DNA from: an uncultured Chromatiales bacterium
GTDB lineage: Bacteria; Bacteroidota; Ignavibacteria; SZUA-365
Direction: 5' to 3'
Length of the DNA: 64,000 bases
NCBI GenBank assembly: GCA_964635845.1
Contig: CAZWNO010000002.1
Location: forward strand, 44,901-108,900
The stretch's first letter is position 1. Every line of letters starts with the position of its first letter. The position numbers and the translations under genes are program-made. Below the pieces are notes generated by a model. That model was not told where the DNA came from and made no database searches. It was given only the letters and a program-made list of their open reading frames with translations. This document shows positions 30,599 through 53,129 of the stretch, piece after piece.

Positions 30599-33598
30599 AT
30601 GCGACTTGCAGTACCAATTCTCGCAATGTTCATTGCTCTGACAATGATCACCGACGCCGCGGCGAAGGAACGTCCGCGTCCTGCGTCGCCAGCCGTTACC
30701 GTTTCCAACGACCTCGTGCCGGGGATAGTCTTCGTCAAATTCAAGGACAGCCGAACGCTCGCGCCCGGCGGGGCCGCCACGGGTATCGGCAGCGTCGACC
30801 GCATACTCGCCCGCGCGATGGCTTCCTCCGTCGAGCCTTTACACCGGACCCTGTCGCAGCGAAAGAGCTTCAACTCCACGCAGGAGGCGAGTCTCGCCCG
30901 CATCGTGAAAGTCCGCTACTCCGCGTCGCTCGATCCGAAGCAGCTTGCCGCCGAACTCGCGGCAGATCCCTCCGTCGAGTACGCCGAACCGTACTACGCC
31001 TTCCGTCCGCTGCACACGCCCGACGATCCCCGCCTGACAACGCAGTGGGCCGTGACCATGCTGAAAATGCAGGAGGCATGGGACGTCACCACGGGTGATT
31101 CCACGATCTCCATCGGGTATGTCGACTCCGGTGTGAATTACGCCCACGAGGACCTTTCCCTCTCCCTCGCGATCAACGCAGGTGAATGGGGTGCGAACGG
31201 CGAACTCAAGGACAACGGCCTCGACGATGACGGCAACGGCTACATCGACGACTGGCGCGGCTGGGATTTCGTCGGGAACGGCACTTTGACGGCGCCGAAT
31301 CCGGATAACGACCCGATGGATTTCAACGGGCACGGGACCAACGGCGCGGGGATTGCCGCTGCACGCACCAACAACGGAAAGGGAATCGCCGGCATTGGCT
31401 ACATGACAAAAATCCTTGCGATCAAGGTGCAGGACGATGCGGGCCAGACCGGCTTCGCAGGTTATGAGGGGATCACCTACGCCGCCGACATGGGCTGCCG
31501 CGTCATCAACTGCAGCTGGGGCGACAATGCGATGATCAGTCAGACACTGCAGGACGTCGTCGACTATGCATGGTCGAGAGGCGCGCTCGTCGTCGGCGGT
31601 GCGGGCAACAGCGTCATCGACAACGACATCAACCCGTTCATCCCCGCTTCGCTGAACCATGTGCTCAGCGTCAGTTCCTTTGAGGAAGACGGCAGCAACA
31701 GCGCCTGGGCGGCCTACGGCGCATCGGTGCACGTCTACGCACCCGGCACCAACGTGCTCACGACACGCGGAAGCTTCGGCTACCAGGCCGTGACCGGCAC
31801 ATCTTTCGCCGCCCCGCACATGTCAGGCCTTGCGGCGCTGATCTTCGCCGTGCATCCGGACTGGACTCCCGATCAGGTGCTGCAGCAGATCCGCGTCACG
31901 GCCGACGGTTTCGGCGCGACTCCCGACGCGAAGCGCTATGGCCGGGCGAATGCACAGAAGGCGCTCACCATGAACTCTGTCCTCAACGATCTTCCTGGGA
32001 TCGCGGTCGAGAGCTTCACGGTCAGCACGCCGCAGGGTGCGTATTTCAGCCAGGGCGGACAGACCGCCACGATCAATGTCACGCTCAAGAATCATCTCGC
32101 GCCCGCGGTGGACGCTACGGTGGATCTCGTGCTCACCGGCGCACCGGTCACGGCCACGACGACCAACTTTCCGCTCGGTGCGATGGCGAACATGGTCACC
32201 AAGAGCATAACCATCGAGGTGCGGCTCAACGACGACGTCAAACAATCCGAGGGATACATCCCTGTCATTCTGAAGATCACTTCCGGTACGCTTGTTGATT
32301 TCGAAATCGTGCGCGTACCGATCTATCTCGACGACGCCTGGCATACGGTGGTCGATCTCACGTATCCGTACAACTCGATCGACCAGCCGAACCGTTGGAC
32401 CGTCTGGGTCAGCGGTGATTACGCGCCGAACGGCACACCGACACAGGACATCGCGATCCGCACGACCGACGGCGGCGACAGCTGGCTCTACGCTTTCGGT
32501 ACGGGCTTCCCGAGTGGTCGCGGTGTGTACTGCATCGACGGTATCGATGAGAACAATGCGCTCGTGGGCACGGGTCCGGCAGACGGGAACGCCGCCATCT
32601 TCCGCACCGGCGACGGTGGACAGAACTGGACTTCGTCCAGCGTCTCCAACATGACGGCCTTCGTCAACTGGATTCACATGTTCGACGGTCAGAACGGCAT
32701 CATGCAGGGAGATCCGAAGGGCAATGCCTGGGCGCTCGCCACGACGAACAACGGCGGGCAGACCTGGTCGCCCATTTCGACTCCGCTGGGTGCGGCCACA
32801 GGCGAGACGGGATGGAACAACAGTTACGATGTCGTGGGTGATCATATCTGGTTCGGAACGAACAGCAGCAAGATCTATCGCTCCACCGACCGTGGACAGA
32901 CCTGGACGGGGTATGCCACACCGAGCAAGAATTCGGTCGACGTCAATTTCCGCGATGAACTCGTGGGCATCGCCCGCTTCTCGAAACAGGCCGAGCAGGG
33001 CACGGATACACTCGCACTCACCTTGGACGGCGGTCTCACCTGGTCGCTGATCTCAACCATCGCCGCTCCGTCGGGTTCGACGGCGTTCGAGCGCGGCGGG
33101 AAGCGCCTCTGGTTCTTCCAGGGCGCGAATGCGCTGGTCTCCACCAACCTCGGTGCGACATGGAACGTTCAGGCGGCCCCGAGCGATTTCAATTACGTCA
33201 ACGACGCGGCCGAGTGGAATGACGGAGCCGTCACCATGGTGTTCGCCGCAGGCATCGAGATTTTCCGCTACGCCGGCCAGTTCATGGTGCTCGGTGTCGG
33301 AGACTTGGAAGCGGCGGCGCCGGCGATCCCGCTGCTGCACGCGCTCTATCCGAATCCCGTTGCCTCGGGACGCGACGGCAGCGTCATCGCGCAGCTCCAG
33401 CTCCCCTCGGCGGCCGCGGTTGTGCTTGCAGTTTACGACATGAGCGGCAAGAAGGTACGCGAAGTGCTGAACGCCACGCTCGAAGCCGGCATGCACAGCG
33501 CCCGTGTTTCTACCGCCGGACTCTCCGCCGGCAACTACCTGCTTCGTCTGAGCACGCCGGTCACGAGCAGCGCGCAAAAGCTCGTCGTACTGAACTAG
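30599..33598 (+). CDS. S8 subtilisin-family peptidase fused to an Asp-box beta-propeller and a C-terminal T9SS-type sorting domain (999 aa)
   Basis: Propeptide. Catalytic D (VDSGV), H (NGHGTNGAG) and S (GTSFAAPHMSG). Six Asp-boxes (TDGGDSW, GDGGQNW, NNGGQTW, TDRGQTW, LDGGLTW, NLGATW). Tail LYPNPVASGRDG..VYDMSGKKV..LSAGNYLLRL. Confidence 0.85.
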   Translation: MRLAVPILAMFIALTMITDAAAKERPRPASPAVTVSNDLVPGIVFVKFKDSRTLAPGGAATGIGSVDRILARAMASSVEPLHRTLSQRKSFNSTQEASLARIVKVRYSASLDPKQLAAELAADPSVEYAEPYYAFRPLHTPDDPRLTTQWAVTMLKMQEAWDVTTGDSTISIGYVDSGVNYAHEDLSLSLAINAGEWGANGELKDNGLDDDGNGYIDDWRGWDFVGNGTLTAPNPDNDPMDFNGHGTNGAGIAAARTNNGKGIAGIGYMTKILAIKVQDDAGQTGFAGYEGITYAADMGCRVINCSWGDNAMISQTLQDVVDYAWSRGALVVGGAGNSVIDNDINPFIPASLNHVLSVSSFEEDGSNSAWAAYGASVHVYAPGTNVLTTRGSFGYQAVTGTSFAAPHMSGLAALIFAVHPDWTPDQVLQQIRVTADGFGATPDAKRYGRANAQKALTMNSVLNDLPGIAVESFTVSTPQGAYFSQGGQTATINVTLKNHLAPAVDATVDLVLTGAPVTATTTNFPLGAMANMVTKSITIEVRLNDDVKQSEGYIPVILKITSGTLVDFEIVRVPIYLDDAWHTVVDLTYPYNSIDQPNRWTVWVSGDYAPNGTPTQDIAIRTTDGGDSWLYAFGTGFPSGRGVYCIDGIDENNALVGTGPADGNAAIFRTGDGGQNWTSSSVSNMTAFVNWIHMFDGQNGIMQGDPKGNAWALATTNNGGQTWSPISTPLGAATGETGWNNSYDVVGDHIWFGTNSSKIYRSTDRGQTWTGYATPSKNSVDVNFRDELVGIARFSKQAEQGTDTLALTLDGGLTWSLISTIAAPSGSTAFERGGKRLWFFQGANALVSTNLGATWNVQAAPSDFNYVNDAAEWNDGAVTMVFAAGIEIFRYAGQFMVLGVGDLEAAAPAIPLLHALYPNPVASGRDGSVIAQLQLPSAAAVVLAVYDMSGKKVREVLNATLEAGMHSARVSTAGLSAGNYLLRLSTPVTSSAQKLVVLN

Positions 33599-33737: not shown

Positions 33738-36700
33738 ATGAAAGCTTTCTCCGGCATGTGCATCGCAGCACTGTATCTGCTCCTGGCAGCCTCCCCCACA
33801 CTTGCGGATTCTCCCGAAAGGACTGCCTCTCCCGCCACTTACGGTAAGAGATCCGTTGAGATCGTACCCAACGTCCTCATCGTCAAGCTCCGGCCGCAGG
33901 TCAGCTTCAGCAGCGGCGGTGATCGTCTCGGTGTGCGCGCCCTCGATGCGATACTCGCACGCGTGGGCGCAACGGCGGTGGAGACGTTCAGCACCGTGAA
34001 GGAGAATGCTATGCAGAAGGCCGCAAGGCGTCAGTACCACCACGATCGCATGGTCAAGATCCGTTACAGCTCGACCGATCATCCGGCACTGCTTGCGAAG
34101 GAGATCGCAAGCGACCCGAACGTGGAATACGCCGAGCCGTACTACGTTTATCCTGTGTCCCATACGCCGAATGATCCGCGGCTGAGCACGCAATGGGCTG
34201 TCACCGTGATGAAGCTGAAGGAAGCTTGGGATGTCACGACGGGGGACTCCACCATCATCATCGGCGATGTGGACACCGGCGTGGACTGGACGCATGAGGA
34301 TCTTTCTCTGAGCATCTATATCAATCCCGGCGAGTATGGAACGAACGGCGAGCTTTCAGCCAACGGTGTCGATGACGACAGCAACGGCAAGATCGATGAC
34401 TGGCACGGCTGGGATTACTTCGGCAACGGCAGCTTCTCGGCGCCCAAGCCCGACAACAATCCCATGGACGGCACGCTCGGTCACGGCACCAACACTTCCG
34501 GCTGCGCAGCGGCGCTGGCCAACAACGGCCTTGGCATCGCGGGCAGCAGCTACCGCGCGAAGATACTCGCGATCAAGGCTTCGACGGATCAGACCGGCGG
34601 CGTCGGCGGTTACGAAGGAATCCTTTACGCGGCACAGATGGGCTGCCGCATCATCAATTGCAGTTGGGGCGGCTCAGGTGATCGGTCACAGGCTCTGCAG
34701 GATCTGGTAGACGACGTCACCGACATGGGAGCACTCGTGGTCGGTTCCTCCGGCAATGATCCGATCGACAACGACTACACGCCGCACTGGCCGTCGTCGT
34801 TCAACCGCGTCCTCAACGTCGGTTCGGTCGAATCGAGCGGCGCGGCGTCGACCTGGTGTACCTACGGCACCTCCGTGCATACGTATTCCCCGGGCAGTGG
34901 TATTCTCACCACGAAGAAGGGCGGGGGATACACGAATCCGACCGGGACATCCTTTTCTTCTCCCCTCGCTTCCGGTGTCGCGGCGCTGGTGTTCGCCATG
35001 CATCCCGACTGGACCCCCGACCAGGTTGCCGCGCAGATCCGCGTCACGTCTGACCGTTTCGGAAGCACGCCGACGAGCAAGCGCCTGTCCCGTCTCAACG
35101 CGTTCAAGGCGGTCTCGCTCAACCGGAATCTCGACGAGATTCCCGGCCTTCGCATCAGCCGATTCTCTTACGTGTTCCAGGGCGGTGGTTCGAGTTTCAC
35201 GGAACCGAGGCAGACCGCCCGCGTCACCGTGGAGTTCGAGAATGTTCTCGCTCCGACATCGGCGGCGGCCACCGCGTATGTCGATCTGGACGATCCCTCC
35301 ATCACGGCGAGCGCGACGGATTTCGCGCTCGGTGTCATGAATACCTTCGACAAGAAGACCGTCGAATTCGACGTGGTGCTCTCCGACAAACCGCAGACCT
35401 CCGAAGGCTACCTGCCGGTGCGCATCCGCATCGAGGACGGCGAATACCTTGATTACGTGATGGGACGCATCCCGATTTTCCTCGACGACGCCTGGCATAC
35501 GTCGCTGTCGTTCGGTGCACCGTACTTCACCTCCATCGATGCGGTGAGCGCAACCGTGGTATGGGCGACGGCGAACGTGCAGAGTCAGGATATCTGCGTG
35601 CGAACCGTGAATGGCGGATCGTCATGGAGCAACACCGCCGGTTCTGGATTTCCGAATGGCAAGGGAGTCTACTGCGTGTTCGGCGTGAACAGCAGCATCG
35701 CGCTCGTGGGCACCGGGCCGGATTCCGGCCCGGCTGGGGTCTTCCGCACCACCAACGGCGGAACGCTCTGGACAGGCAGCTCGGTGAGCAGCATCACGGG
35801 CTTTGTCAACTGGATTCATATGTTCGACGCACAGAACGGGATTCTGCAGGGAGATCCCCTCGGCGGAACCTGGGGCATCGCGACCACGACCGACGGCGGA
35901 GCGACGTGGACCAAGGCACCGGGGGCACCGGCCGCTCCCACCGGCGAAGCGGGGTGGAACAACAGCTATGCCGCCGCCGGCGACACACTGTGGTTCGGTA
36001 CCAACAACAGCAAGATCTACCGCTCCGTCGACCGCGGGGCGACATGGAGCAGTTTCCCGACGCCGAGCAAGCATTCCGTCGATATGGTCTTCGCCGACAG
36101 CAGGCGCGGCATGATCCGCTTTACGACCCAGACCAGTTCCGGCGGCACGAACGCCCTGGCGGTGACCAGCGACGGCGGCGAGACCTGGACGCAGCTGAGC
36201 ACCATCACCGTCACGACGGGCGGCAGCATCGAGGTCGAACCCGATGGCAAGCGCTTCTGGTTCATGCAGGGCACCAACGCGCATGTCTCGTCCGACCTCG
36301 GCGCAACCTGGACAGTACAGGCCACGCCTGGCGGCTTCGGACTGATCACCTGTTCCTCCGCCTACAGCGGCGGCATCAAGAGCGACGTGTATGCAGCGGG
36401 TCTCGACATCTTCAAGTTTACCTCGACGTTCGATCCCTACAATACCACCGGCATCGGTGATGCACCCGCGGCCGCCGGTTTCGGGATCGATTATCTGTAC
36501 CCGAATCCCGTTTCGACCGCGTCCGCAGGCGGCATCACCGTCGGCTTCACGCTCGATGAAAGCTCGGCCGCAAAGCTTGCCGTGTACGACAACCTGGGCC
36601 GTGTCGCAGTCGAAGGTCTCGACGCCAACCTCACGGCTGGTGCGCACAGCTTCCGTCTCGACACGTCCGCGCTGAGCACCGGCGTCTATCGCGTCCGCGT

Positions 36701-36749
36701 GCAGGCAGGCGATCGCGCTGCGACGGCAAACCTTCTCGTGATTCATTAG
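33738..36749 (+). CDS. S8 subtilisin-family peptidase fused to an Asp-box beta-propeller and a C-terminal T9SS-type sorting domain (1003 aa; tandem paralog)
   Basis: Same architecture as 30599-33598. Catalytic triad (VDTGV, GHGTNTSG, GTSFSSPLASG). Asp-boxes NGGSSWS, NGGTLWT, TDGGATWT, DRGATWS, SDGGETWT, DLGATWT. Tail LYPNPVSTASAG..VYDNLGRV..LSTGVYRVRV. Confidence 0.85.
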   Translation: MKAFSGMCIAALYLLLAASPTLADSPERTASPATYGKRSVEIVPNVLIVKLRPQVSFSSGGDRLGVRALDAILARVGATAVETFSTVKENAMQKAARRQYHHDRMVKIRYSSTDHPALLAKEIASDPNVEYAEPYYVYPVSHTPNDPRLSTQWAVTVMKLKEAWDVTTGDSTIIIGDVDTGVDWTHEDLSLSIYINPGEYGTNGELSANGVDDDSNGKIDDWHGWDYFGNGSFSAPKPDNNPMDGTLGHGTNTSGCAAALANNGLGIAGSSYRAKILAIKASTDQTGGVGGYEGILYAAQMGCRIINCSWGGSGDRSQALQDLVDDVTDMGALVVGSSGNDPIDNDYTPHWPSSFNRVLNVGSVESSGAASTWCTYGTSVHTYSPGSGILTTKKGGGYTNPTGTSFSSPLASGVAALVFAMHPDWTPDQVAAQIRVTSDRFGSTPTSKRLSRLNAFKAVSLNRNLDEIPGLRISRFSYVFQGGGSSFTEPRQTARVTVEFENVLAPTSAAATAYVDLDDPSITASATDFALGVMNTFDKKTVEFDVVLSDKPQTSEGYLPVRIRIEDGEYLDYVMGRIPIFLDDAWHTSLSFGAPYFTSIDAVSATVVWATANVQSQDICVRTVNGGSSWSNTAGSGFPNGKGVYCVFGVNSSIALVGTGPDSGPAGVFRTTNGGTLWTGSSVSSITGFVNWIHMFDAQNGILQGDPLGGTWGIATTTDGGATWTKAPGAPAAPTGEAGWNNSYAAAGDTLWFGTNNSKIYRSVDRGATWSSFPTPSKHSVDMVFADSRRGMIRFTTQTSSGGTNALAVTSDGGETWTQLSTITVTTGGSIEVEPDGKRFWFMQGTNAHVSSDLGATWTVQATPGGFGLITCSSAYSGGIKSDVYAAGLDIFKFTSTFDPYNTTGIGDAPAAAGFGIDYLYPNPVSTASAGGITVGFTLDESSAAKLAVYDNLGRVAVEGLDANLTAGAHSFRLDTSALSTGVYRVRVQAGDRAATANLLVIH

Positions 36750-43058: not shown

Positions 43059-43242
43059 TGTGCGAAGCCTCCGATGATAATCACATTTGAACGTGCTGCC
43101 GCGGGGCATGCATCGTTCAAGATAAGGAAAAAGCGAGAGCGGCGAAAAGATGCGGGTGCATGCCCCGCATGAATGGCACGGAATCACGATTTCCGTTATT
43201 TTTCAATTGACGCAGCACCTACATACAATGCCGGGATCACAG

Positions 43243-45066
43243 ATGACGAAGCACCTTTCCATCACATCGATTGTCTTTCTGAACGTACTATTCTTTCTCG
43301 CGGCACTGCTCCCGGCCCAGACTGTCGTCGACACAACGCTCGTGATGAGCGACGGCGTACGGATCGACGCGCTATACGCACTGCCCGTCACACCTGCACC
43401 GCCCGGCGGTTATCCCGCCATCGTGCTGGTGCATGGTTTCGCCGGCTCGAAGAATAACAACCGATCACTCGCGCTCGATTTCGCCCGCGAAGGTTACGCG
43501 GCCACGGCGTACAGCGTGCGCGGCCAGGGCGCCTCCGAAGGATTGTTCGAGTTCTTCACCGCGCCCCGCGTGCTCGACGACCTGCGCGAGAATATCCGCT
43601 TCACCATGCAGCTGCGGGGCAGAATCAATCCGGAGCGTGTGGCGGTCCTCGGCGCGTCGCAGGGAGGACTGCATGCATGGAATGCCGCAGCCTATGGCAT
43701 GGGTGCGCGCTGCGTCGTGTCGATCATCGCCAACGGTCGCGCGGAGGAGAACTGGCTCGAGAATGGCGCGCTGAACTGGACTTTCACCGCCGCGACGATG
43801 ACTCCCAACGTGCGCTTCGAGCCCGCGGTGACCGCGCTCCTGCAGCAGGCGCGCGCGAGCGGTGATTTCGGCTCGATCCAATCCTATCTTCGCGATCACT
43901 CGACGAACTCCCTCGAGAGCGGAGTCACGACCCCGACGCTGATCCTCGTCAGCTATCGCGACGGCTTCTTCAACCAGAACGCGGCGCTGCGTCAGCTCCA
44001 CGGTGTGACCGCGCCCAGGCGCATCGTGCTGTATCCGGGGGGACACGAACTCCCGCCCGATGCCCAACAGGAGGGGTACGTCATGGACGTCCTGTACCGC
44101 TGGCTGGACTACTGGCTGAAGGATGAGACCGCCCTGGCGTCCGTGGCATCGCCCGACAGCACGGTGGTGTTCTTCGACGGCGGCACGGGGGCACGTCGCA
44201 TGTATGCCGGCCAGCAATCGGAGCGATGGCTTCTCCCGGGCGATCCGCCGCCGCAGGGGATGAAACTGCTCGATCTGTACTTCGATGAAGCGGGAATCAC
44301 TCTGCAGCCTCCGCCGAACCGCAGCGAACGCGTGATCACATATATCAACGTGCTGGGCTCCACGCCGATTTCCTTCCGGACTGCGCCGATGTCACGGGAT
44401 CTCACCGTCCTGCCGCCTGCGGGGAAAGCACAGCTCCGCGTGCGGGCGACAGGAGAGCAGTATCAGATGAATGTGCTGCTCTATGACGTCGATCCCTCCG
44501 CGGGCACCCGGATCCCGATGAATCGCGGTCATTCGCAGTCGGCGGATCCGAATACCGAGCGCACCATGGATTTCGATCTGACGAGCATCCTGCACACCGT
44601 CAGAGCGGGACATGTCATCGAAGTGCTCGTGCACGGCGGCACCGCCCTGATCCCCGACCAGTCGAGCAATTTCGGGAACGTCGTGCTCGGTCCTGTACAT
44701 CCTTCGCTCAACACCTTCTTCATCGGAGGCGAGAATCCCTCGCGCATTTCCCTGTACGTCGAGGACGAAAGCACGGTCGCGGTCGCACCGCTCGGTGAGA
44801 CAGAGCACATGCGGCTCTATCCTTCGTGGCCGAATCCCGTCGACGACCACGCGACACTTTCGTTCGCACTGGACGAGGCCATGCCCGTGCGGCTGTCGGT
44901 ACATGACAGCATGGGGAGAGAGATTGCGGTGCCCGTGGAAGGATTCATGGAGGGGGGGCGGCACAGTGCGACGATGTCCGGAGCGGAGCTGCCGAACGGA
45001 TTGTACATCTACAGGCTGACGGCTGCGGGAGAAGTGTCACACGGAAAATTTATCATCAGGCATTGA
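43243..45066 (+). CDS. alpha/beta hydrolase of the CocE/NonD (S15 X-Pro dipeptidyl-peptidase-like) type with a C-terminal T9SS-type sorting domain
   Basis: Signal peptide. VLVHGFAGSK..LGASQGG nucleophile elbow. C-terminal beta-sandwich. Tail LYPSWPNPVDDHATLSF..VHDSMGREI..LPNGLYIYRL. Confidence 0.72.
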   Translation: MTKHLSITSIVFLNVLFFLAALLPAQTVVDTTLVMSDGVRIDALYALPVTPAPPGGYPAIVLVHGFAGSKNNNRSLALDFAREGYAATAYSVRGQGASEGLFEFFTAPRVLDDLRENIRFTMQLRGRINPERVAVLGASQGGLHAWNAAAYGMGARCVVSIIANGRAEENWLENGALNWTFTAATMTPNVRFEPAVTALLQQARASGDFGSIQSYLRDHSTNSLESGVTTPTLILVSYRDGFFNQNAALRQLHGVTAPRRIVLYPGGHELPPDAQQEGYVMDVLYRWLDYWLKDETALASVASPDSTVVFFDGGTGARRMYAGQQSERWLLPGDPPPQGMKLLDLYFDEAGITLQPPPNRSERVITYINVLGSTPISFRTAPMSRDLTVLPPAGKAQLRVRATGEQYQMNVLLYDVDPSAGTRIPMNRGHSQSADPNTERTMDFDLTSILHTVRAGHVIEVLVHGGTALIPDQSSNFGNVVLGPVHPSLNTFFIGGENPSRISLYVEDESTVAVAPLGETEHMRLYPSWPNPVDDHATLSFALDEAMPVRLSVHDSMGREIAVPVEGFMEGGRHSATMSGAELPNGLYIYRLTAAGEVSHGKFIIRH

Positions 45067-45107: not shown

Positions 45108-45122
45108 CCATGGTACCGGATG

Positions 45123-46811
45123 CTAGTTGACGAACTGCGCTGCGTAGTGCTTCGCGGTGAGTTTTTCGCCCGTGGCGTTTTCGATCATGTCGTTCCAGAG
45201 CAGTGTGCGGCCGGGCTTGAAGACATTGTCGATGAGGAAGGTCCCCACCTCGGTGCGGCCGACATAGGCTTCGCGGCGCGGATCCTCCGATTTCAGAATC
45301 TTGCCGCAGATATGGGCATGCAGCTGCGACGCGAGCAGTTCTCCCATCAGGTAGTTGTGATAGTAGGCGGGATACAGGGCGACATGAATCTTCGACGCCC
45401 AGTCGGGATTGCTGCGTCCCGCGGGTTTCCGGATCATCTGGTATTTTTCCACCAGCTGCCACCAGAGCGCGTCGAGGTCCTGATCGGGATTTTCGTACAG
45501 GGCTTTTTCAAAGCGATACATCACCTGCGCCCAGCGGCTGAATACCAGCTGTTCCAGACGCAGGGATTTGAACATCAGTTCGGCCGCCTCTTCCGCCCGA
45601 TTGCCAGGTACACCCGCGATCCGCGTCAACCAGACGGGATTGCTCGCGAGGCGCCCGAAGAGCATCGCGATCGCCTCGGTCGTAAACGTGTGCGCCGGTT
45701 CGCGCAGCGTCCACGGCACGCTGCGATCGTTGAATTTGTCGTAGACCGCGTGGCCGTATTCGTGCAGCGTCGTGTTCATCCAGTTGTATGTCGGCTTGAT
45801 ATTGCAGACCACCCGCACGTCACCTTGCCGGTCGATGTCCGTGCAGTACGCATGCTGGTACTTCCCTTCCTTTTCGAAGAGATCGCTCTTCTCCACGAGA
45901 TCGTCGATCGGGAGCCCGAGGCCTGCGTAGTACTTCTTCGCCAGCGCGACGATGTCCGTTTCTTTATAGAAGACATCGAGGTCTGTTTCGTAGATTTTCG
46001 GCGCCTCCTGGAAAAAACGGTTCTGGTAATGCCACGGCATCAGATCTTCGACCGCGATGCCGCAGCGTTTGGCGAGCACGACGTCCATCTCCGCCTTCAG
46101 CTGCGCGAAGCTGCCGGCGGTCAGTTCGTCGAGTTCGTCGAACAGCGCCGCGATCTGCTCGGGGTCCTGTTCGCTCAGTTCCAGTTTCATCGCGTGGAAA
46201 TTGGCGAAGCCGAGTTCCCGCGCGGCGCTGTTGCGCAGGCGCACGAGCCTGAGCACCTCCGGCGCGGCGATGCGCCCGATTTCCTTGCTCGCCTTCCACG
46301 CGGCCTCGAGTTCGGTGCTCCTGGTCGACGTACGCAGGATCTCCTCGATTTCGTTGTCGGTCAGCGTCTTGCCGTTCACCACGGCGCGGAAGGTCGAGAA
46401 TTTCTTTTCGTTTTCGTTCTGGAGGCGTATCATCTCCTCCAATTTCCGCTCGTCGATCTGCCGTTCGACATACTCGAAGTACAGTACGTTGAGCTGCCGA
46501 TTCAGGATGGGATCGGTCAGGACCTTCGCGTCGCGGATGCGCTTGAGAAGCTTGAAATCAGTCTTGTTCGCATAGATCTTCGTCAGTTCCACTTCAAGAT
46601 CGGCCGCAAGCGTGTAGTCTTCTGCTTTCCCTGAAATGGTGGCGTTGAAATAGGCGAGCGCCGCTTTCTCGCTCAGCGGAATTGCCTTGCTCTCGTATTT
46701 CTTTAGAAAAGTTCTGAATTCCTCGGTCATACGTTCCTTCTCCGATGTTCCGCAAGACATGAGCAAACCAAGAAAGGCAAGAGCGGGCAGAATAATGCGC
46801 AGTCGATACAT
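45123..46811 (-). CDS. M2 family (angiotensin-converting-enzyme-like) peptidyl-dipeptidase lipoprotein
   Basis: Lipobox LLMSCG. HEYGHAVYDKF..WTLREPAHTFTTEAIAMLFG parallels the ACE HEMGH..LRE..HEAIGD zinc site. ACE-like ..NATISG.. near the N-terminus. GGAGG 4 nt upstream of the ATG. Confidence 0.75.
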   Translation of the reverse strand: MYRLRIILPALAFLGLLMSCGTSEKERMTEEFRTFLKKYESKAIPLSEKAALAYFNATISGKAEDYTLAADLEVELTKIYANKTDFKLLKRIRDAKVLTDPILNRQLNVLYFEYVERQIDERKLEEMIRLQNENEKKFSTFRAVVNGKTLTDNEIEEILRTSTRSTELEAAWKASKEIGRIAAPEVLRLVRLRNSAARELGFANFHAMKLELSEQDPEQIAALFDELDELTAGSFAQLKAEMDVVLAKRCGIAVEDLMPWHYQNRFFQEAPKIYETDLDVFYKETDIVALAKKYYAGLGLPIDDLVEKSDLFEKEGKYQHAYCTDIDRQGDVRVVCNIKPTYNWMNTTLHEYGHAVYDKFNDRSVPWTLREPAHTFTTEAIAMLFGRLASNPVWLTRIAGVPGNRAEEAAELMFKSLRLEQLVFSRWAQVMYRFEKALYENPDQDLDALWWQLVEKYQMIRKPAGRSNPDWASKIHVALYPAYYHNYLMGELLASQLHAHICGKILKSEDPRREAYVGRTEVGTFLIDNVFKPGRTLLWNDMIENATGEKLTAKHYAAQFVN

Positions 46812-47119
46812 GAAACCTCCGGTAATGATCAGCGCCGGGTTGCGGTTGACGCGTAAATTACCATGTTCACGCGTAAATTCCGATTCCCTGCTGCCCTCCT
46901 CCAGGCCGTCTGCAGCGATTTTCCGGTCCGCGGCCTCCGAAGTCCCGACAACCTGCAGCGGTTCTCCGGTCCGTGGCTTCCGATGTCCCGATGGCCCGCC
47001 AATTGCCTGTCGCTTGGCTGTAACCTTCACTATATTGAGGTGTTATTATGAACGTGTGCTGTTTTACATACGTTCATTGAATGGATCACTGATACCGAGT
47101 ACCTGGAATCGCCGCCGCA

Positions 47120-47712: not shown

Positions 47713-48876
47713 ATGAGCAACCAACACGAGTACATGGATTCGCGAATGCTGCATGCATTCATGGACGGAGAGCTGGGAGGCGCCCAGGAAGAGGTGCTGT
47801 TCCTGAAACTCTCCTCCGATGCGGAACTGCGTTCAGAAATGCAGGATCACATCGCCATCCGGAAGGCGATACAGCACGACATCGAGTCATTCACACCGCC
47901 GGCATCGGCCACTGCTGCGATTTTTGCGACGCTTGGCTTCACCATTCCCGCTGCTACGGCCACCGCTGCATCCGCGGGGAGCAGCTCCGCCGGACTCGCC
48001 GGGCTGCGCGGCATGGGCTTCAGTGTGGGCTCGGCCATCCTGGCCACCGTCGCCGCAGTGCTGTTGTACATGCAGTTCCCCCTGCCGTTCGCAGCCTTCG
48101 ATCGCGTCGTGGAGCGGGTGGTGAGCACTCCGTCAGGTACGGTCGTGCTCGAGGAATCGGCACCGCTCGCCGACCTCCCCGTCGCTGCCGCGATGCGCAG
48201 CTCGGACCGTCTCAGGCATGCCGATATTCCGGTATTCGCGGCAGGAGTACCGGCCGCGGCGCCGGTGACTGTGGAACGTCGCGACGTGCGTCCGCGCGAC
48301 ATGGAACTTCTTGCGCAGGCGATGGAGTCAATGGACGCCCCCGACCATGTCCGGGCGGATCAGGTTCGATTCTTCGATCTCATCCCGGCTCCCGACGGCG
48401 TCACGCTGTATGCGCGCAACGTCGCGCTGCAGTCCGATCCGACACCGACGGTGGTGTCGCAATCCGATACATGGTTCAGCAACATGAACCTGGGCGTGCT
48501 CTATTCGATCGGCGAGCATCATTCAATCGGTATAGAAGGCGGAAGAGAGGCGTTCTCACAGCATTTTTCCGGATTTGAAAATGGCGTGCGCGTGCGGTAC
48601 GAGCAGAATCCCCTGACATACTGGGCGACGGCGGTATACCAGTATACGGGAGGTGCCCTGCTCCCGCACGTTCACCCATTTGCCCAGATTCAGGCCGGCG
48701 GCGCATTTCAGCTCGGCCCTCTCGCCCGCGCCACGCTCGGGCTCAAGCTCAAACCCTTTGATCGCATCGCCGTGGTGCTCGGCGCGGAAGGGAGCGTCCT
48801 GATGTACCGCTTCCAGAACAACTGGTTCAATACAAATAAACTGGGCCTGACCTACGGCGTCTCGTACGAGTTCTGA
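47713..48876 (+). CDS. anti-sigma-factor-like membrane protein with a C-terminal beta-barrel-like domain ending in ..YEF
   Basis: N-terminal HAFMDGEL anti-sigma motif. Starts 30 bp after the sigma gene. One TM-like segment (SVGSAILATVAAVLLYMQF). C-terminal roughly 180 aa with alternating hydrophobic beta-pattern and a terminal Phe. Confidence 0.5.
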   Translation: MSNQHEYMDSRMLHAFMDGELGGAQEEVLFLKLSSDAELRSEMQDHIAIRKAIQHDIESFTPPASATAAIFATLGFTIPAATATAASAGSSSAGLAGLRGMGFSVGSAILATVAAVLLYMQFPLPFAAFDRVVERVVSTPSGTVVLEESAPLADLPVAAAMRSSDRLRHADIPVFAAGVPAAAPVTVERRDVRPRDMELLAQAMESMDAPDHVRADQVRFFDLIPAPDGVTLYARNVALQSDPTPTVVSQSDTWFSNMNLGVLYSIGEHHSIGIEGGREAFSQHFSGFENGVRVRYEQNPLTYWATAVYQYTGGALLPHVHPFAQIQAGGAFQLGPLARATLGLKLKPFDRIAVVLGAEGSVLMYRFQNNWFNTNKLGLTYGVSYEF

Positions 48877-48879
48877 TAC

Positions 48880-49623
48880 ATGCAGAGTACACGCGCCATT
48901 GCGTTCGCTTCGCTCGCGGTGCTGATTGCGCTCGTTTTCGGCGCCTGCGACTCGCCCCTCGACGTGGAAACGCCGCGCAATCGTCTGGTCGACCGTGTGT
49001 CCATCCCGCTCTCTGACGATATCGGGAGCGCCGTATCCGTGGTGCTGCCGCCGGACACGTCGAGCGAGGATACGACCGCACTGAGCGTGCATTTCTCCGT
49101 GGCGCTCGTCGTTGACGCGAGCGGCAGTATCTCGGCGCAGACCGCGCTCGCATTCCGTGACGGCTGCCACGCCGTACTCGATTCGCTCGATGGGGAGAAG
49201 GACGAGGGCGTGGTGGTTTTCTTCACGCAGACGGCAACGATCGCCCAGCATCTGACCTCGCAGGTCTCGCTTCTGCGCAGCGCCGTCGACGGCATCCCCA
49301 CAGACGGCGCGACTGCCATGTGGGACGGTATCTACAAGGCGATGCTCGAACTGCAGTCGAAAGCCACGCATACGCACCGCGCGGTGATCGTCATCACCGA
49401 CAGTGACGACAACTCCAGCACAACGGGCACGCCGGCCAAGATCACCACACTTGGACAGAGCGCGAAAATTCCCGTATTTTCAATTGCTCTTCGCTCGACA
49501 AGCCAGGAAGTGGTGCTACGCGGCATCGCGCTGGCGACAGGCGGACAGCATTTTCCGCAGCCGTTCCTCTCGCAGATCGACGAGATCTGCCGGGGAATCG
49601 CGCACGAGCTGAAAACCCCATGA
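48880..49623 (+). CDS. VWA (von Willebrand factor A) domain lipoprotein
   Basis: Lipobox LVFGAC. MIDAS-like DxSxS (VDASGSIS). ..VVITDSDDNSS.. VWA core. Confidence 0.7.
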   Translation: MQSTRAIAFASLAVLIALVFGACDSPLDVETPRNRLVDRVSIPLSDDIGSAVSVVLPPDTSSEDTTALSVHFSVALVVDASGSISAQTALAFRDGCHAVLDSLDGEKDEGVVVFFTQTATIAQHLTSQVSLLRSAVDGIPTDGATAMWDGIYKAMLELQSKATHTHRAVIVITDSDDNSSTTGTPAKITTLGQSAKIPVFSIALRSTSQEVVLRGIALATGGQHFPQPFLSQIDEICRGIAHELKTP

Positions 49624-49672: not shown

Positions 49673-50887
49673 ATGATCCGTTTCTCAGGTTTCATGGCAT
49701 GCGTGCTGTCGATTCTCGCAACGTCGCTGTTCGCGCAGACCGAAGCACGCATCACGACGATGCACATGCAGCAGGGAAATCCCGCCGGGCAGTTCACCGT
49801 GTCGGTCCGCTGTAACGGAGAATCGCAGTTTGATCTCCAGAAAAGCCAGCTGGCCGTGACGGACAATGGCATGCCGGTGAATGACTTCGAAATCATCGAG
49901 AGTTCGTCACCGCTGCTGCGCAATCCTTTCTCGGCGGTGCTGGTCATGGACGCCAGCGGCAGCATGATCGGTGCGGGAAACGCCGGAGCGAAAGCCGCCG
50001 GCACTGCATTCGTTGATTTCATGGATGGTTCGGTCGATGAAGCGGCATTGCTCTGGTTCAATCAAACGGTCACGACCTTCCAGCAGATGACGACCATCAA
50101 GCCCATGCTGCTCGCCGCCGTGGCGGCTCTTCCCGCAGAGGGGGCCACCGCGATGTTCGACGCCGCCTGGGCCGGACTGCTCGAGCTGCAGCTGAACGGG
50201 CTCAATCCCAAGAAGGCCGTGTTACTGCTCAGCGATGGCGGCGACAACAGCAGCGTCCGAACGATCAGCGAAGTGATTTCGCTTTCGAATCAGCTGAATC
50301 TCCGTATCTTCACGGTCGGACTGGGCGATCTGCTCGACACGCTGTCGCTCGGCAACATGGCATCATTGACCGGCGGTCTCTATTTCACGACGCCCAACGC
50401 GGTCGATCTTCAGGCGATCTTCACCGAAATCGCGAATTTCATGGGACGTGGCTTCGAGGAACACACGGTCGCATTTACCAGTCCCGACCCTGACGCGGCA
50501 ATGCATGACCTGCGAATCTCCGTGGTCGCCTGCGGTGAAACCGCTGCCGCGACGAAGCAGGAGGCCGCCCTTACGACCACGGGCGTGCGTCATCTGCGTG
50601 GATCGGTGCCGTTCGCGCTCACTCTGGGCCAGAGTGTTCCCAATCCACTCGGATCCTCCGGTGAAGCCGTGATCCCCTTCACGCTGAGCGGAGTGAATGC
50701 ACCGCAGCCGCTGCGGCTCGAGGTGTTCGATCTCCTTGGCCGACGCGTGGCGAAGCTCGTCGATGCTGACGTACATCCCGGCAGCCACACAGCGCGCTTC
50801 GATGCACGGGGACTCGCGCCCGGAATGTATCTCTACCGGCTCAGCAGCGGGAGCGTCGTGACGACGAAGACCATGATCGTGCGCTGA
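49673..50887 (+). CDS. VWA domain protein with a C-terminal T9SS-type sorting domain
   Basis: Signal peptide. MIDAS DASGSM and LLLSDGGDNSS. Tail ..VPNPLGSSGEAVIPFTL..VFDLLGRRV..LAPGMYLYRL. Confidence 0.7.
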   Translation: MIRFSGFMACVLSILATSLFAQTEARITTMHMQQGNPAGQFTVSVRCNGESQFDLQKSQLAVTDNGMPVNDFEIIESSSPLLRNPFSAVLVMDASGSMIGAGNAGAKAAGTAFVDFMDGSVDEAALLWFNQTVTTFQQMTTIKPMLLAAVAALPAEGATAMFDAAWAGLLELQLNGLNPKKAVLLLSDGGDNSSVRTISEVISLSNQLNLRIFTVGLGDLLDTLSLGNMASLTGGLYFTTPNAVDLQAIFTEIANFMGRGFEEHTVAFTSPDPDAAMHDLRISVVACGETAAATKQEAALTTTGVRHLRGSVPFALTLGQSVPNPLGSSGEAVIPFTLSGVNAPQPLRLEVFDLLGRRVAKLVDADVHPGSHTARFDARGLAPGMYLYRLSSGSVVTTKTMIVR

Positions 50888-50910
50888 TCCGATCCGTTGC
50901 CCGTACATGC

Positions 50911-50940
50911 AAAGAGGCTGCCCGTTCGGACAGCCTCTTT
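50911..50940. terminator. hairpin between the convergent VWA gene and htpG (AAAGAGGCTG-cccgttcgga-CAGCCTCTTT)
   Basis: 10-bp perfect stem, extendable with one mismatch. Confidence 0.55.
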
Positions 50941-50963
50941 CCATTCCGGCCCGGTGCCGTGAA

Positions 50964-52835
50964 TCAGCCGCGTGTGGCCTTCTCCATGAATTCCATCGCA
51001 CGGCGCACGAAGTCCACCGGATTCTGAAGATTGTCTTCCACGAGCAATGCGCCTTCATACATCTGTTCGACCGCCTGCACCAGCATTGGATCGTCGTGAT
51101 TCTCGCTGTTCATCCGCGCGAGATTTTTCATGAGCGGATGACCCAGGTTGACCTCGAGTATTTTTTTACTCGACGTGAAATTGTTGTCCATCATCTTCAT
51201 CATGCGTTCCATCTGGGCGTCCATACCCGATTTGCCGACCACCAGCGTCGCGACGCTGTCGACCAGGCGCTTCGACTCGATCACGTCCTCGATGCGGTCG
51301 CCGAGAATTTCCTTGCATCGAATCAGGATGTTCTTCGCCTCGCGACCCTTCAGCGCTTCGTCCGATTCGTCTCCGGACTTCTTCGCGATGTCGATATCCG
51401 CCTTTTCGATGGAGTCGATCTTCTTCGACTCATATTCACCCAGTGCCGTGACGGTGAAGAGATCCACGGGGCCGGTGAGGAAAATCACCTCGATGTCATG
51501 CTTCCGGAAATACTCGAGGTTGGGATTGTTCTCGACGACGGCGCGGCTCTCACCCGTGATGTAGTAAATCTCCTTCTGCTCCGCATCCATGGCGGAAACG
51601 TATTCCTTGAACGATGTCATCTTACCCGGGGCCGTCTTGCTCGTCTCGAAACGCATGAGTTCGACGAGCCGGTCCTTGTTCGTGAAATCGCTTCCCAGCC
51701 CGAGCTTCAGATAGTTGCCGAAGTGCGAGAAGAAGGTCGCATATTTTTCAGGATCGGACTTCGACCAATCTTCGAGCATGCCGAGCACACGGTTGGTGAG
51801 GATCTCGCGCATCTTCGCCGTGACGGGACTCGACTGTGTCACTTCGCGTGACACGTTCAGCGGGAGGTCCTCGGTGTCGACGACACCCTTGATGAAGCGC
51901 AGGTACTCGGGTACGAGGTCCTTGCAATCATCCTGTATGAACACGCGGTTGACGTAGAGCTGCAGGCTTTTCTCCTCACGCGGATCGAAATATCCGAACG
52001 GGGGTGCGGAGGGGACGAATACCAGCGCCTTGAAATTGACGCGTCCCTCGATGTGCAGCGAGAGTGAATCCAGCGGTTCGCGGAAGTCTCCTGCCACGAA
52101 CTTGTAGAACTCATCCAGCTCCTCCTTTTTCAGATCCTCCTTCTTCCGCTGCCAGAGTGCGCTGACGCTGTTGACCCTGTCCTTGCCGATGAAAATCGGG
52201 AAGTCGACGAAGTTGGAATATTTCTTGATCAGGTCCTTTATCCTGTATTCATTCGCGAGGTCCTTCGCATCGTCCTTGAGCTTGAAGAAAATGCGGGTGC
52301 CGCGTTCCTTCTTCTCCATCTCCTCGATGGTGAACGTTCCCTCGCCGCGCGACTTCCAGCGCCAGCCCTTCCCATCAGGATCCGCCGACCTGGTCTCTAT
52401 CGTCACTTCATCTGTCACCATGAACACCGAGTAGAAGCCGACGCCGAATTTCCCGATCAGTTCTCCGCCGTCGAATTTCGCCTCGCCGGTTCTTGACTGA
52501 GTGAGAAAATCCAGCGTTCCTGAACTGGCTACCGTTCCGATGCGTGCGATCAAATCCTCGCGCGACATTCCGATGCCGCTGTCCTCCACCGAAAGGTTCT
52601 GGTTCTTCTCGTCGATGTCGATGCGGATGCGAAGCTCCGCATCAGGCTGCAGCACCGGCATGTTCCGCACCTGCATGAAGCGCACTTTGTTGAGCGCATC
52701 CGACGCGTTCGAGATAAGCTCACGCAGGAACACTTCAGGATGGGTGTACAGCGAATGGATGATCAGGTGGAGAAGCTGCTTCATCTCCGCCTTGTATTCG
52801 AATTCCTGCACGGAAGTCTGGTTCGTCTCGGTCAT
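50964..52835 (-). CDS. htpG: molecular chaperone HtpG (Hsp90)
   Basis: HPEVFLRELISNASDALNKVRF (Bergerat ATP-binding N-domain). GVGFYS. Full length. Start set at MTETNQT. Confidence 0.93.
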   Translation of the reverse strand: MTETNQTSVQEFEYKAEMKQLLHLIIHSLYTHPEVFLRELISNASDALNKVRFMQVRNMPVLQPDAELRIRIDIDEKNQNLSVEDSGIGMSREDLIARIGTVASSGTLDFLTQSRTGEAKFDGGELIGKFGVGFYSVFMVTDEVTIETRSADPDGKGWRWKSRGEGTFTIEEMEKKERGTRIFFKLKDDAKDLANEYRIKDLIKKYSNFVDFPIFIGKDRVNSVSALWQRKKEDLKKEELDEFYKFVAGDFREPLDSLSLHIEGRVNFKALVFVPSAPPFGYFDPREEKSLQLYVNRVFIQDDCKDLVPEYLRFIKGVVDTEDLPLNVSREVTQSSPVTAKMREILTNRVLGMLEDWSKSDPEKYATFFSHFGNYLKLGLGSDFTNKDRLVELMRFETSKTAPGKMTSFKEYVSAMDAEQKEIYYITGESRAVVENNPNLEYFRKHDIEVIFLTGPVDLFTVTALGEYESKKIDSIEKADIDIAKKSGDESDEALKGREAKNILIRCKEILGDRIEDVIESKRLVDSVATLVVGKSGMDAQMERMMKMMDNNFTSSKKILEVNLGHPLMKNLARMNSENHDDPMLVQAVEQMYEGALLVEDNLQNPVDFVRRAMEFMEKATRG

Positions 52836-53129
52836 GATCGAATTCTCTTCTTTCTGGTACATCTCCAACAGCATATAATTTACTACTGTGGCATGGCACG
52901 GGACAAGAACCGGCGAAGTACCCATCCTGCGCCGCCGATAGTATCCTCCTGCCATTCACAGGAAGCGGGCGTTGGATCTTTTTTCCATCACGGGAATTGT
53001 TTGCGCCTTCCTGGGCGTTTGGACTATGTCAGGGGATACACGATAATTCAGAGGAGCATCATCCCTTGTGAGTCCATTGACAGCAACTCTCATACATTCA
53101 CAACACCACCTTCAGGAGGAACGCTTCCC

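Follow-up and report, generated by a model that had tools for sequence, protein, structure and literature searches.

We analyzed the gene at positions 47713-48876 (+ strand) of a 64,000-nucleotide stretch of contig CAZWNO010000002.1 (the window), and conclude that its product, the target protein, is probably a Dma-type anti-sigma factor, a single polypeptide that spans both membranes and has a C-terminal outer-membrane barrel. In silico, the protein has the four architectural features of the Dma family, its gene adjoins a sigma factor gene, and it belongs to the same phylum. The domain anatomy, the barrel fold, the C-terminal beta-signal, the adjacency to the sigma factor gene, and the conservation of the promoter and of the lipoprotein were all computed directly. 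The preliminary description of this DNA had proposed that one chain connects a cytoplasmic anti-sigma domain to the outer membrane, and this prediction is supported by the domain anatomy, AlphaFold and Foldseek. It had also held that such an architecture was undescribed. That claim of novelty was wrong and the structural idea right, since the architecture has been published (PMC9308784, PMC10927553, PMC13088901), as Reo in 2013, M0N98_03760 in 2022, Dma1 in 2024 and Dma2 in 2026. The target is therefore an uncharacterized and unannotated relative of Dma, and not the example of a new principle.

The open reading frame (ORF) begins with ATG and encodes 387 amino acids. Its parts are as follows.

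47713-48876, + strand: the target gene, with four parts (anti-sigma domain, transmembrane (TM) helix, disordered linker, C-terminal barrel domain)
47713-47946, + strand: anti-sigma domain, residues 1-78 (AlphaFold helices, Pfam matches in the family, sequence matches in the PDB)
48010-48078, + strand: inner-membrane helix, residues 100-122 (hydropathy, AlphaFold, conservation in the family)
48079-48399, + strand: periplasmic tether, residues 123-229, 107 amino acids (low predicted local distance difference test (pLDDT) scores, variable alignment)
48400-48873, + strand: predicted 8-stranded outer-membrane beta-barrel, residues 230-387 (AlphaFold, Foldseek)
48850-48873, + strand: beta-signal for BAM (the machinery for beta-barrel assembly), TYGVSYEF, residues 380-387 (polar-x-G-x-x-aromatic-x-Phe)

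The C-terminal domain was predicted to be a closed 8-stranded barrel. In the full-length AlphaFold model, residues 230-386 were modeled as strands with a pLDDT of about 90 (b1, 230-242; b2, 258-265; b3, 270-289; b4, 292-312; b5, 320-331; b6, 335-346; b7, 352-367; b8, 370-386). A model of the domain alone (residues 222-387, from an alignment of 26 sequences) had the same strands, with a pLDDT of 83 and a predicted TM-score (pTM) of 0.77. The last 180 or so amino acids had previously been described as barrel-like. The strands are there in the models, and the domain is somewhat smaller than thought, about 158 amino acids (residues 230-387). When the full-length model was compared to the PDB with Foldseek, all 27 matches at E ≤0.001 were outer-membrane or designed transmembrane barrels. 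The TM-scores of the domain model, normalized to the query and to the matched structure, respectively, were as follows.

NspA: 0.60 and 0.64
OmpA: 0.59 and 0.57
OprF N-domain: 0.55 and 0.66
Designed 8-strand barrel: 0.53 and 0.71
OmpW: 0.54 and 0.50
OpcA (10 strands): 0.38 and 0.28
Pla (10 strands): up to 0.46 and 0.32
Designed 10-strand barrel: 0.35 and 0.38

The best scores were those of 8-stranded barrels, and 10-strand barrels scored no higher than 0.46. Structure prediction of this region, the check that the preliminary description had proposed, gave matches to closed transmembrane barrels and no soluble sandwich. A soluble beta-sandwich was supported by neither of the two AlphaFold models and by neither of the two Foldseek searches.

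DSSP divided the domain into ten strand segments, with breaks at residues 281-282 and 299-300. We read these breaks as bulges within one long b3-b4 hairpin, which gives an 8-stranded barrel with a protruding hairpin. The hairpin (residues 270-312, positions 48520-48648) contains the densest cluster of residues conserved across the family (G273, E275, G277, E279, F281, Q283, F285, Q298 and P300). In the models it projects past the barrel, making it a candidate for a surface-exposed sensing element. One face of the predicted strands was 67% hydrophobic and the opposite face 30%, the latter being rich in Gly, Thr, Ser, Glu, Arg and Gln. Among barrel columns, conservation was highest at Gly, Glu, Gln, Lys and Arg, with no aliphatic core, a pattern that suits a small membrane barrel with a polar lumen.

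These results extend to a large family. A word-indexed search found 45 close homologues (43-97% identity), none of which had a Pfam annotation. Apart from two or three fragments, they were 365-440 amino acids long and covered 89-100% of the query, and those with a named source were all "hypothetical proteins" from Bacteroidota metagenome-assembled genomes (MAGs). Their alignment had four zones: conserved residues 1-80, a hydrophobic helix, a variable linker, and a conserved C-terminal region of about 160 amino acids. A profile search of 1.84 billion representatives of clusters at 50% identity recovered 1,837 proteins at E ≤0.001 and 655 at E ≤1e-30. Both the N-terminal and the C-terminal domain were matched by nearly all of the best 150 of the 1,837 representatives, which were 370-570 amino acids long. 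These 150 distant members of the family are the relatives referred to below, and Pfam counts refer to 110 diverse members that were scanned. A scan of the genomes of GTDB species found full-length relatives at 29 loci, with identities down to 27%. Conservation in the 45 close homologues and in the 1,837 cluster representatives marks this ORF as a genuine gene, not one that arose by chance. No NCBIfam model matched the target protein alone.

Relatives with a named source came from MAGs labeled Bacteroidota, Ignavibacteria or Kapaibacterium (the last of which the NCBI taxonomy assigns to Bacteroidota), plus a few labeled as proteobacteria; all named members of the family are called "hypothetical protein". 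The gene and its operon neighbors (the cassette) occurred in MAGs labeled Bradyrhizobiaceae, Chromatiales, Hyphomicrobiales or Ectothiorhodospiraceae (loci L019, L020, L021, L022 and L027). The proteobacterial labels on such MAGs are probably wrong, or the bins contaminated. Two family members, P0030 (JXA28_12885, 380 amino acids) and P0127 (JXA28_04890, 501 amino acids), share a locus-tag prefix, which places both in one MAG and indicates that there are within-genome paralogues in the family. Each presumably has its own sigma factor.

The beta-signal was conserved in much of the family. The terminal SYEF that had been pointed out in the preliminary description is part of a G-x-x-Hy-x-[FWY] ending found in 119 of the 150 relatives. 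The last residue was Phe in 105 of them, and Gly occupied the position of G382 in 148. Phe387 was invariant in the close subfamily.

The N-terminal domain resembled those of known anti-sigma factors. AlphaFold predicted four helices (residues 3-17, 23-35, 37-60 and 64-74) with a pLDDT of about 82. The H-x3-DGEL signature reported earlier was present (L13-H14-x3-D18-G19-E20-L21), with D18, G19 and L21 each at least 90% conserved among the relatives. In Pfam, the target protein itself matched RseA_N only, and did so weakly, below the cutoff (E 0.012, residues 12-60). Matches to zf-HC2 were found in 35 of the 110 scanned family members (best E 3.7e-5) and to RseA_N in 24 (best E 4.8e-5). When a profile of the family was compared to the PDB, the top two matches were RseA, through its N-domain (E 0.0037), and RsiW (E 0.03). 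There is no cysteine in the target protein and no HxxxCxxC motif in the N-terminal region of any of the 150 relatives, indicating that it is not a zinc-binding anti-sigma factor (ZAS). By analogy to these proteins, we infer that the domain is class-I-like and cytoplasmic, and we predict that it binds a sigma factor. A gene for an extracytoplasmic function (ECF) sigma factor was located directly upstream of the target homologue at all 29 loci, and this sigma factor is presumed to be the cognate of the anti-sigma factor.

ORFs that matched the N-terminal domain only (residues ~5-100), with no barrel, were found beside ECF sigma genes at eight other loci (L030-L037), in MAGs labeled Burkholderiaceae, Phycisphaerales, Gemmatimonadota and Anaerolineales. 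This type of anti-sigma domain is thus widespread, and the fusion to a barrel is the lineage-specific part.

There was a single hydrophobic segment of transmembrane grade in the target protein, at residues 100-122 (Kyte-Doolittle maximum 1.94), in agreement with the one TM-like helix previously placed near residue 110. AlphaFold modeled a helix over it (residues 97-121), and 136 of the 150 relatives had exactly one such segment. Neither hydropathy nor AlphaFold indicated a cleavable N-terminal Sec signal peptide ahead of the barrel; the N-terminus is a polar helical domain. Given the anti-sigma domain, the helix would act as a signal anchor with the N-terminus in the cytoplasm.

The tether that follows is rich in Ala, Val, Pro, Asp and Arg and was predicted to be mostly disordered, with a pLDDT below 50 for residues 124-197. 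Its sequence and length varied among close homologues. Among the 150 relatives the linker was 100-290 amino acids long (median 143) and never shorter than 100, which fits a need to span the periplasm. One part was conserved within the close subfamily, a juxtamembrane motif, ERVVSxPxxxxxIEExPALxDLPV (residues 131-156, positions 48103-48180), in which P140 was invariant and D154 nearly so. This motif is a candidate site-1 protease site or partner-binding site.

The same layout has been studied in gut bacteria. It was proposed in 2013 for Reo (with EcfO) of B. fragilis, as cited in PMC10927553, and a 2026 study of P. vulgatus again describes Reo as a protein that 'spans all five compartments' (PMC13114119). 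In 2022 Evans et al. drew it explicitly for M0N98_03760 of P. vulgatus, a 431-amino-acid protein encoded next to a 180-amino-acid sigma factor and linked to envelope stress (PMC9308784). In 2024 Pardue et al. named Dma1 (BT_4721) and tested it with dual tagging and fractionation (PMC10927553). Dma1 consists of an N-terminal region that binds Das1, followed by a TM helix, an extended disordered region and an 8-stranded barrel; Das1 is an ECF21 sigma factor and was pulled down by Dma1's 40 N-terminal residues (PMC10927553). Full-length Dma1 was detected in total membranes, and outer-membrane vesicles contained C-terminal fragments only (PMC10927553). The Dma family was stated to be restricted to Bacteroidota (PMC10927553) and was defined in 2026 by the four modules, with ECF21 sigma genes adjoining its members (PMC13088901). 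Dma2 (BT_1558), together with Das2, chiefly controls its own operon (PMC13088901).

The target has the four modules of Dma1, Reo and M0N98_03760, including the 8-stranded C-terminal barrel, and like them belongs to Bacteroidota in the broad sense. As with M0N98_03760, an ECF sigma gene for about 180 amino acids adjoins it (431 + 180 amino acids there, 387 + 187 here). As with Dma1, the barrel is preceded by an internal TM helix and by no cleavable signal peptide. A lipoprotein is adjacent or in the regulon in both cases, NigD for Dma1 and Reo and a VWA lipoprotein here. There were also differences. Dma1 is a protein of about 55 kDa, whereas the target has a shorter tether, 107 residues in a protein of 387. 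Forty N-terminal residues of Dma1 bind Das1, whereas the target has a four-helix domain of about 75 amino acids that resembles RseA_N and zf-HC2, a difference that may be real or only apparent. The partners are VWA and type IX proteins instead of NigD, and the lineage is that of Ignavibacteria/Kapaibacterium-like MAGs. Dma2 shares the four modules, and its operon also contains the sigma factor gene and further genes downstream, the ones most strongly induced upon deletion of the anti-sigma factor. An arrangement of this kind is suggested here by the sigma-target-lipoprotein-VWA operon. In contrast to the VWA genes here, the downstream genes in B. thetaiotaomicron encode DUF4858, DUF4943 and reductase-like proteins, and Dma2 is confined to the genus Bacteroides. 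Exact probes made from primers for the P. vulgatus orthologue (PMC9308784) had no matches in metagenome contigs and none in viral contigs.

Other known systems share parts of the design. RseA and RsiW, the best sequence matches of the N-domain, likewise span the membrane once and keep the N-terminus cytoplasmic, and their release by site-1 and then site-2 proteolysis is presumed for the target as well. They differ in having soluble periplasmic or extracytoplasmic domains at the C-terminus and in never extending to the outer membrane, and RsiW binds zinc through HxxxCxxC, whereas the target has no cysteine. The FecA-FecR-FecI system follows the same logic: sensing by an outer-membrane barrel, relay by an anti-sigma factor of the inner membrane, and response by an ECF sigma factor. 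However, it uses a separate FecR and a 22-stranded TonB-dependent transducer, compared to one chain and an 8-stranded barrel here, and Pfam scans of the target protein and its operon neighbors found no FecR or TonB-dependent receptor domains. The barrel is similar in fold (TM-score 0.5-0.66) and in its C-terminal aromatic beta-signal to the N-domains of OmpA and OprF and to NspA, OmpX, Ail and OmpW, and as in NspA and OmpX two strands reach well beyond the others. Identity to these small 8-stranded barrels is only 10-14%, and the target is exported by an internal, retained signal-anchor helix and not by a cleavable Sec signal peptide.

Several observations weigh against assigning the target to the Dma type with a barrel in the outer membrane. 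The comparison with Dma1 and Reo was made from published descriptions. Each specific NCBIfam model gave the sigma factor a score short of its cutoff, which leaves an assignment to ECF21 tentative. The tether has a contour length of about 38 nm, which makes it short and fairly taut for a gap that we assumed to be 15-25 nm wide. About 20% of the family representatives have no aromatic last residue. No scanned family member reached the threshold of a Pfam outer-membrane-protein family; OMP_b-brl (PF13505) was matched weakly in three of the 110 (best E 5e-4), and OMP_b-brl_2 (PF13568), which Dma1 carries, was not in the target, in 10 long relatives, or among the 25 families listed for the 110. Conservation was only slightly higher on the polar than on the hydrophobic strand face (0.53 vs. 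0.44), a difference that was not significant (p = 0.18). In addition, the AlphaFold and Foldseek results are predictions, and do not distinguish a membrane-inserted from a soluble barrel.

Given these observations, the protein could be a conventional single-pass anti-sigma factor whose C-terminal domain is a soluble periplasmic barrel or sandwich serving as a sensor. Most class I anti-sigma factors do have soluble periplasmic sensor domains, and one soluble 8-stranded barrel (PsbO) appeared low in the Foldseek lists; the lack of a Pfam outer-membrane-protein match above threshold and the insignificant difference between strand faces also fit a soluble domain. It seems improbable, however, that the domain is soluble. 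The full-length Foldseek matches at E ≤0.001 were exclusively membrane-type barrels, with TM-scores up to 0.71, and conservation of a canonical beta-signal ending in Phe extends across the family. The top-conserved positions of the barrel are Gly and charged residues in place of an aliphatic core. Every member has a disordered tether of at least 100 amino acids, which a membrane-proximal sensor would not need, and in Dma1 the same layout reaches the outer membrane.

It is similarly doubtful that the protein is a pro-protein, split constitutively soon after export into an anti-sigma factor and a barrel that functions as an independent outer-membrane protein. There would then be no signaling through a tether at steady state, and at most a coupling of sigma factor release to barrel biogenesis. 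C-terminal fragments of Dma1 (17-20 kDa) do accumulate, and its full-length form is gone in stationary phase (PMC10927553), and the juxtamembrane motif (residues 131-156) could be a constitutive cleavage site. Against a pro-protein, membranes of growing cells contained full-length Dma1, and the sigma regulon was de-repressed when Dma1 or Dma2 was lost (PMC10927553, PMC13088901). Further, a profile search with the barrel alone recovered only six fragments of the target family, at least one of which (P0194) ends at a contig edge, and no stand-alone barrel with its own signal peptide was seen, which argues that the fusion itself has been selected. An origin by a frameshift or assembly error that joined neighboring anti-sigma and outer-membrane protein genes, the possibility raised in the preliminary description, had no finding in its favor and was rejected as extremely improbable, because the architecture is uninterrupted in the 45 close homologues, one short fragment excepted, and in 29 GTDB genomes of independent assemblies, recurs in nearly all of the best 150 of 1,837 cluster representatives, has no stand-alone barrel gene as a counterpart, and stays fused in hundreds of independent genomes and metagenomes.

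The neighboring elements of the cassette are as follows.

47019-47046, + strand: ECF-type promoter-like element, TGTAACCTTC-N11-GTGTTAT, about 75 nucleotides upstream of the sigma start codon
47120-47683, + strand: ECF sigma factor gene, 187 amino acids (Pfam Sigma70_r2 1.7e-13, Sigma70_r4_2 3e-19)
48880-49623, + strand: lipoprotein gene, 247 amino acids (signal peptide, lipobox ...LVFGA-C, Pfam VWA 2e-10)
49673-50887, + strand: gene for a VWA protein with a type IX sorting domain, 404 amino acids (Pfam VWA 1.3e-8)

The sigma factor was above the cutoff of the TIGR02937 sigma70-ECF model. Its best NCBIfam model was NF058625 (sigma_PG0214), with 100-110 bits compared to a cutoff of 130, barely above the generic ECF models.

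The element upstream of the sigma gene, cTGTAACCTTC-N11-GTGTTAT (TGTAACC-N14-GTGTTAT), was at least 80% conserved in all 15 close loci, in which the flanking DNA could not be aligned. GTAAC was also found upstream of the sigma gene at 10 of 12 distant loci; three of these matched a loosened TGTT pattern, and others had GTAACA-N15-AGTC. ECF promoters have an 'AAC ... GT' layout. The conserved element has this layout as well, making autoregulation likely, and from its sequence the element is probably the promoter of an autoregulated operon. It was unique in the 64-kb window (none expected by chance), and with no second copy of the motif there, further members of the regulon could not be named. 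For comparison, we found no published promoter motif for Das1/EcfO in the literature.

The lipoprotein gene directly followed the target homologue at 25 of 27 loci, as detected heuristically. The lipoprotein encoded in the window has a VWA domain with an intact DxSxS metal ion-dependent adhesion site (MIDAS) motif. The mature domains of the cognate lipoproteins fall into at least four unrelated groups, with VWA in some and no Pfam match in others. The residues after the lipidated Cys are C-DSPLDVETPRNR in the window lipoprotein, and a consensus, C-x-[S/N]-P-x-[D/E/G/A]-[L/I/V]-[D/E], was present in 20 of 20 cognate lipoproteins and in none of 34 other lipoprotein-like ORFs. Lipoproteins were called with a strict heuristic for these counts, and the control ORFs came from the same DNA. 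The peptide may have a docking or sorting role that is specific to the module.

The 404-amino-acid VWA protein matched TIGR04183 (Por_Secre_tail) with 33.8 bits, above the cutoff of 23, and its gene is the fourth of the cassette in the close subfamily. The pair of VWA genes was kept where the target protein was at least 43% identical, with the exception of locus L028, which had the first VWA gene only. In a distant subgroup, a gene encoding about 940 amino acids came after the trio of sigma, anti-sigma and lipoprotein genes (L018, 6062-8902; L024, 6105-8936; L026, 6086-8887). In L018 and L024 its product had a type IX sorting domain along with Ig-like, He_PIG and CarboxypepD_reg repeats, echoing the type IX VWA protein of the window cassette.

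Sigma factor binding, localization to both membranes, a proteolytic trigger and a regulon are inferred by analogy to Dma1/Reo and RseA. The Dma-type protein might work as follows. The four-helix domain (about residues 1-78) would bind and sequester the ECF sigma factor encoded upstream, residues 100-122 would hold the protein in the inner membrane and leave its N-terminus on the cytoplasmic side, and the disordered tether of about 107 residues would span the periplasm. BAM would insert the last 158 or so residues into the outer membrane as an OmpA/NspA-like 8-stranded barrel, with the long conserved b3-b4 hairpin projecting to the cell surface. Barrel and tether would together report the condition of the outer membrane or cell surface. 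Outer-membrane damage, a signal at the surface or a failure of barrel assembly could expose the tether to periplasmic proteolysis. Intramembrane cleavage would come next and would free the sigma factor, which would then transcribe its own operon from the TGTAACC-N14-GTGTTAT promoter, including the genes for the VWA lipoprotein and the type IX-secreted VWA protein.

A bolder possibility, tentative and rather less likely to be right than wrong, is that the target belongs to a second, sequence-distinct lineage of two-membrane-spanning anti-sigma factors and is no simple orthologue of Dma1. This lineage, with 1,837 or more clusters at 50% identity, would pair a class I, RseA-like domain with a barrel family of its own and would act with the adjacent lipoprotein as a three-part module. 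There would be several paralogues per genome in Ignavibacteria/Kapaibacterium-like bacteria. The post-Cys peptide of the lipoprotein would dock on the barrel or the tether, as a signal input or a clamp, and the tether, never shorter than 100 amino acids, would be a ruler or tension sensor of the distance between the membranes.

The two-membrane design has so far been studied only in gut Bacteroidales. With 1,837 clusters at 50% identity, it is abundant in environmental Ignavibacteria/Kapaibacterium-like Bacteroidota, and the family provides a deep alignment for working out which positions of the barrel and tether matter, along with a clean candidate promoter for the sigma factor. The lipoprotein, an unexpected constant partner with a conserved anchor-proximal peptide, could be the missing signal input of this class of regulators. 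What is of value beyond the published architecture is the size and distinctness of the family and the conserved lipoprotein motif. We propose that 'Dma-like anti-sigma factor' replace 'hypothetical protein' in the annotation.

Elsewhere in the window, tRNA and Rfam scans found nothing. The ORF at 43150-45066 encodes an S15/alpha-beta-hydrolase peptidase with a Por_Secre_tail match just under the Pfam cutoff, and two ORFs of about 1,000 amino acids (30599-33598 and 33738-36749) matched the type IX-sorted VWA protein (E about 1e-8). All three are probably other cargo of type IX secretion. An outer membrane and type IX secretion are clearly present in this organism. On either side of the cassette there were long ORFs antisense to real genes, 45120-46634 (+) opposite 45123-47030 (-) and 50907-51851 (+) opposite 50964-52955 (-). 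The real genes encode an M2/M3-type peptidase and HtpG; the antisense ORFs are a by-product of the G+C content of about 60% and are not genes. HtpG and the peptidase flank the cassette in the same positions in loci L001 and L003.

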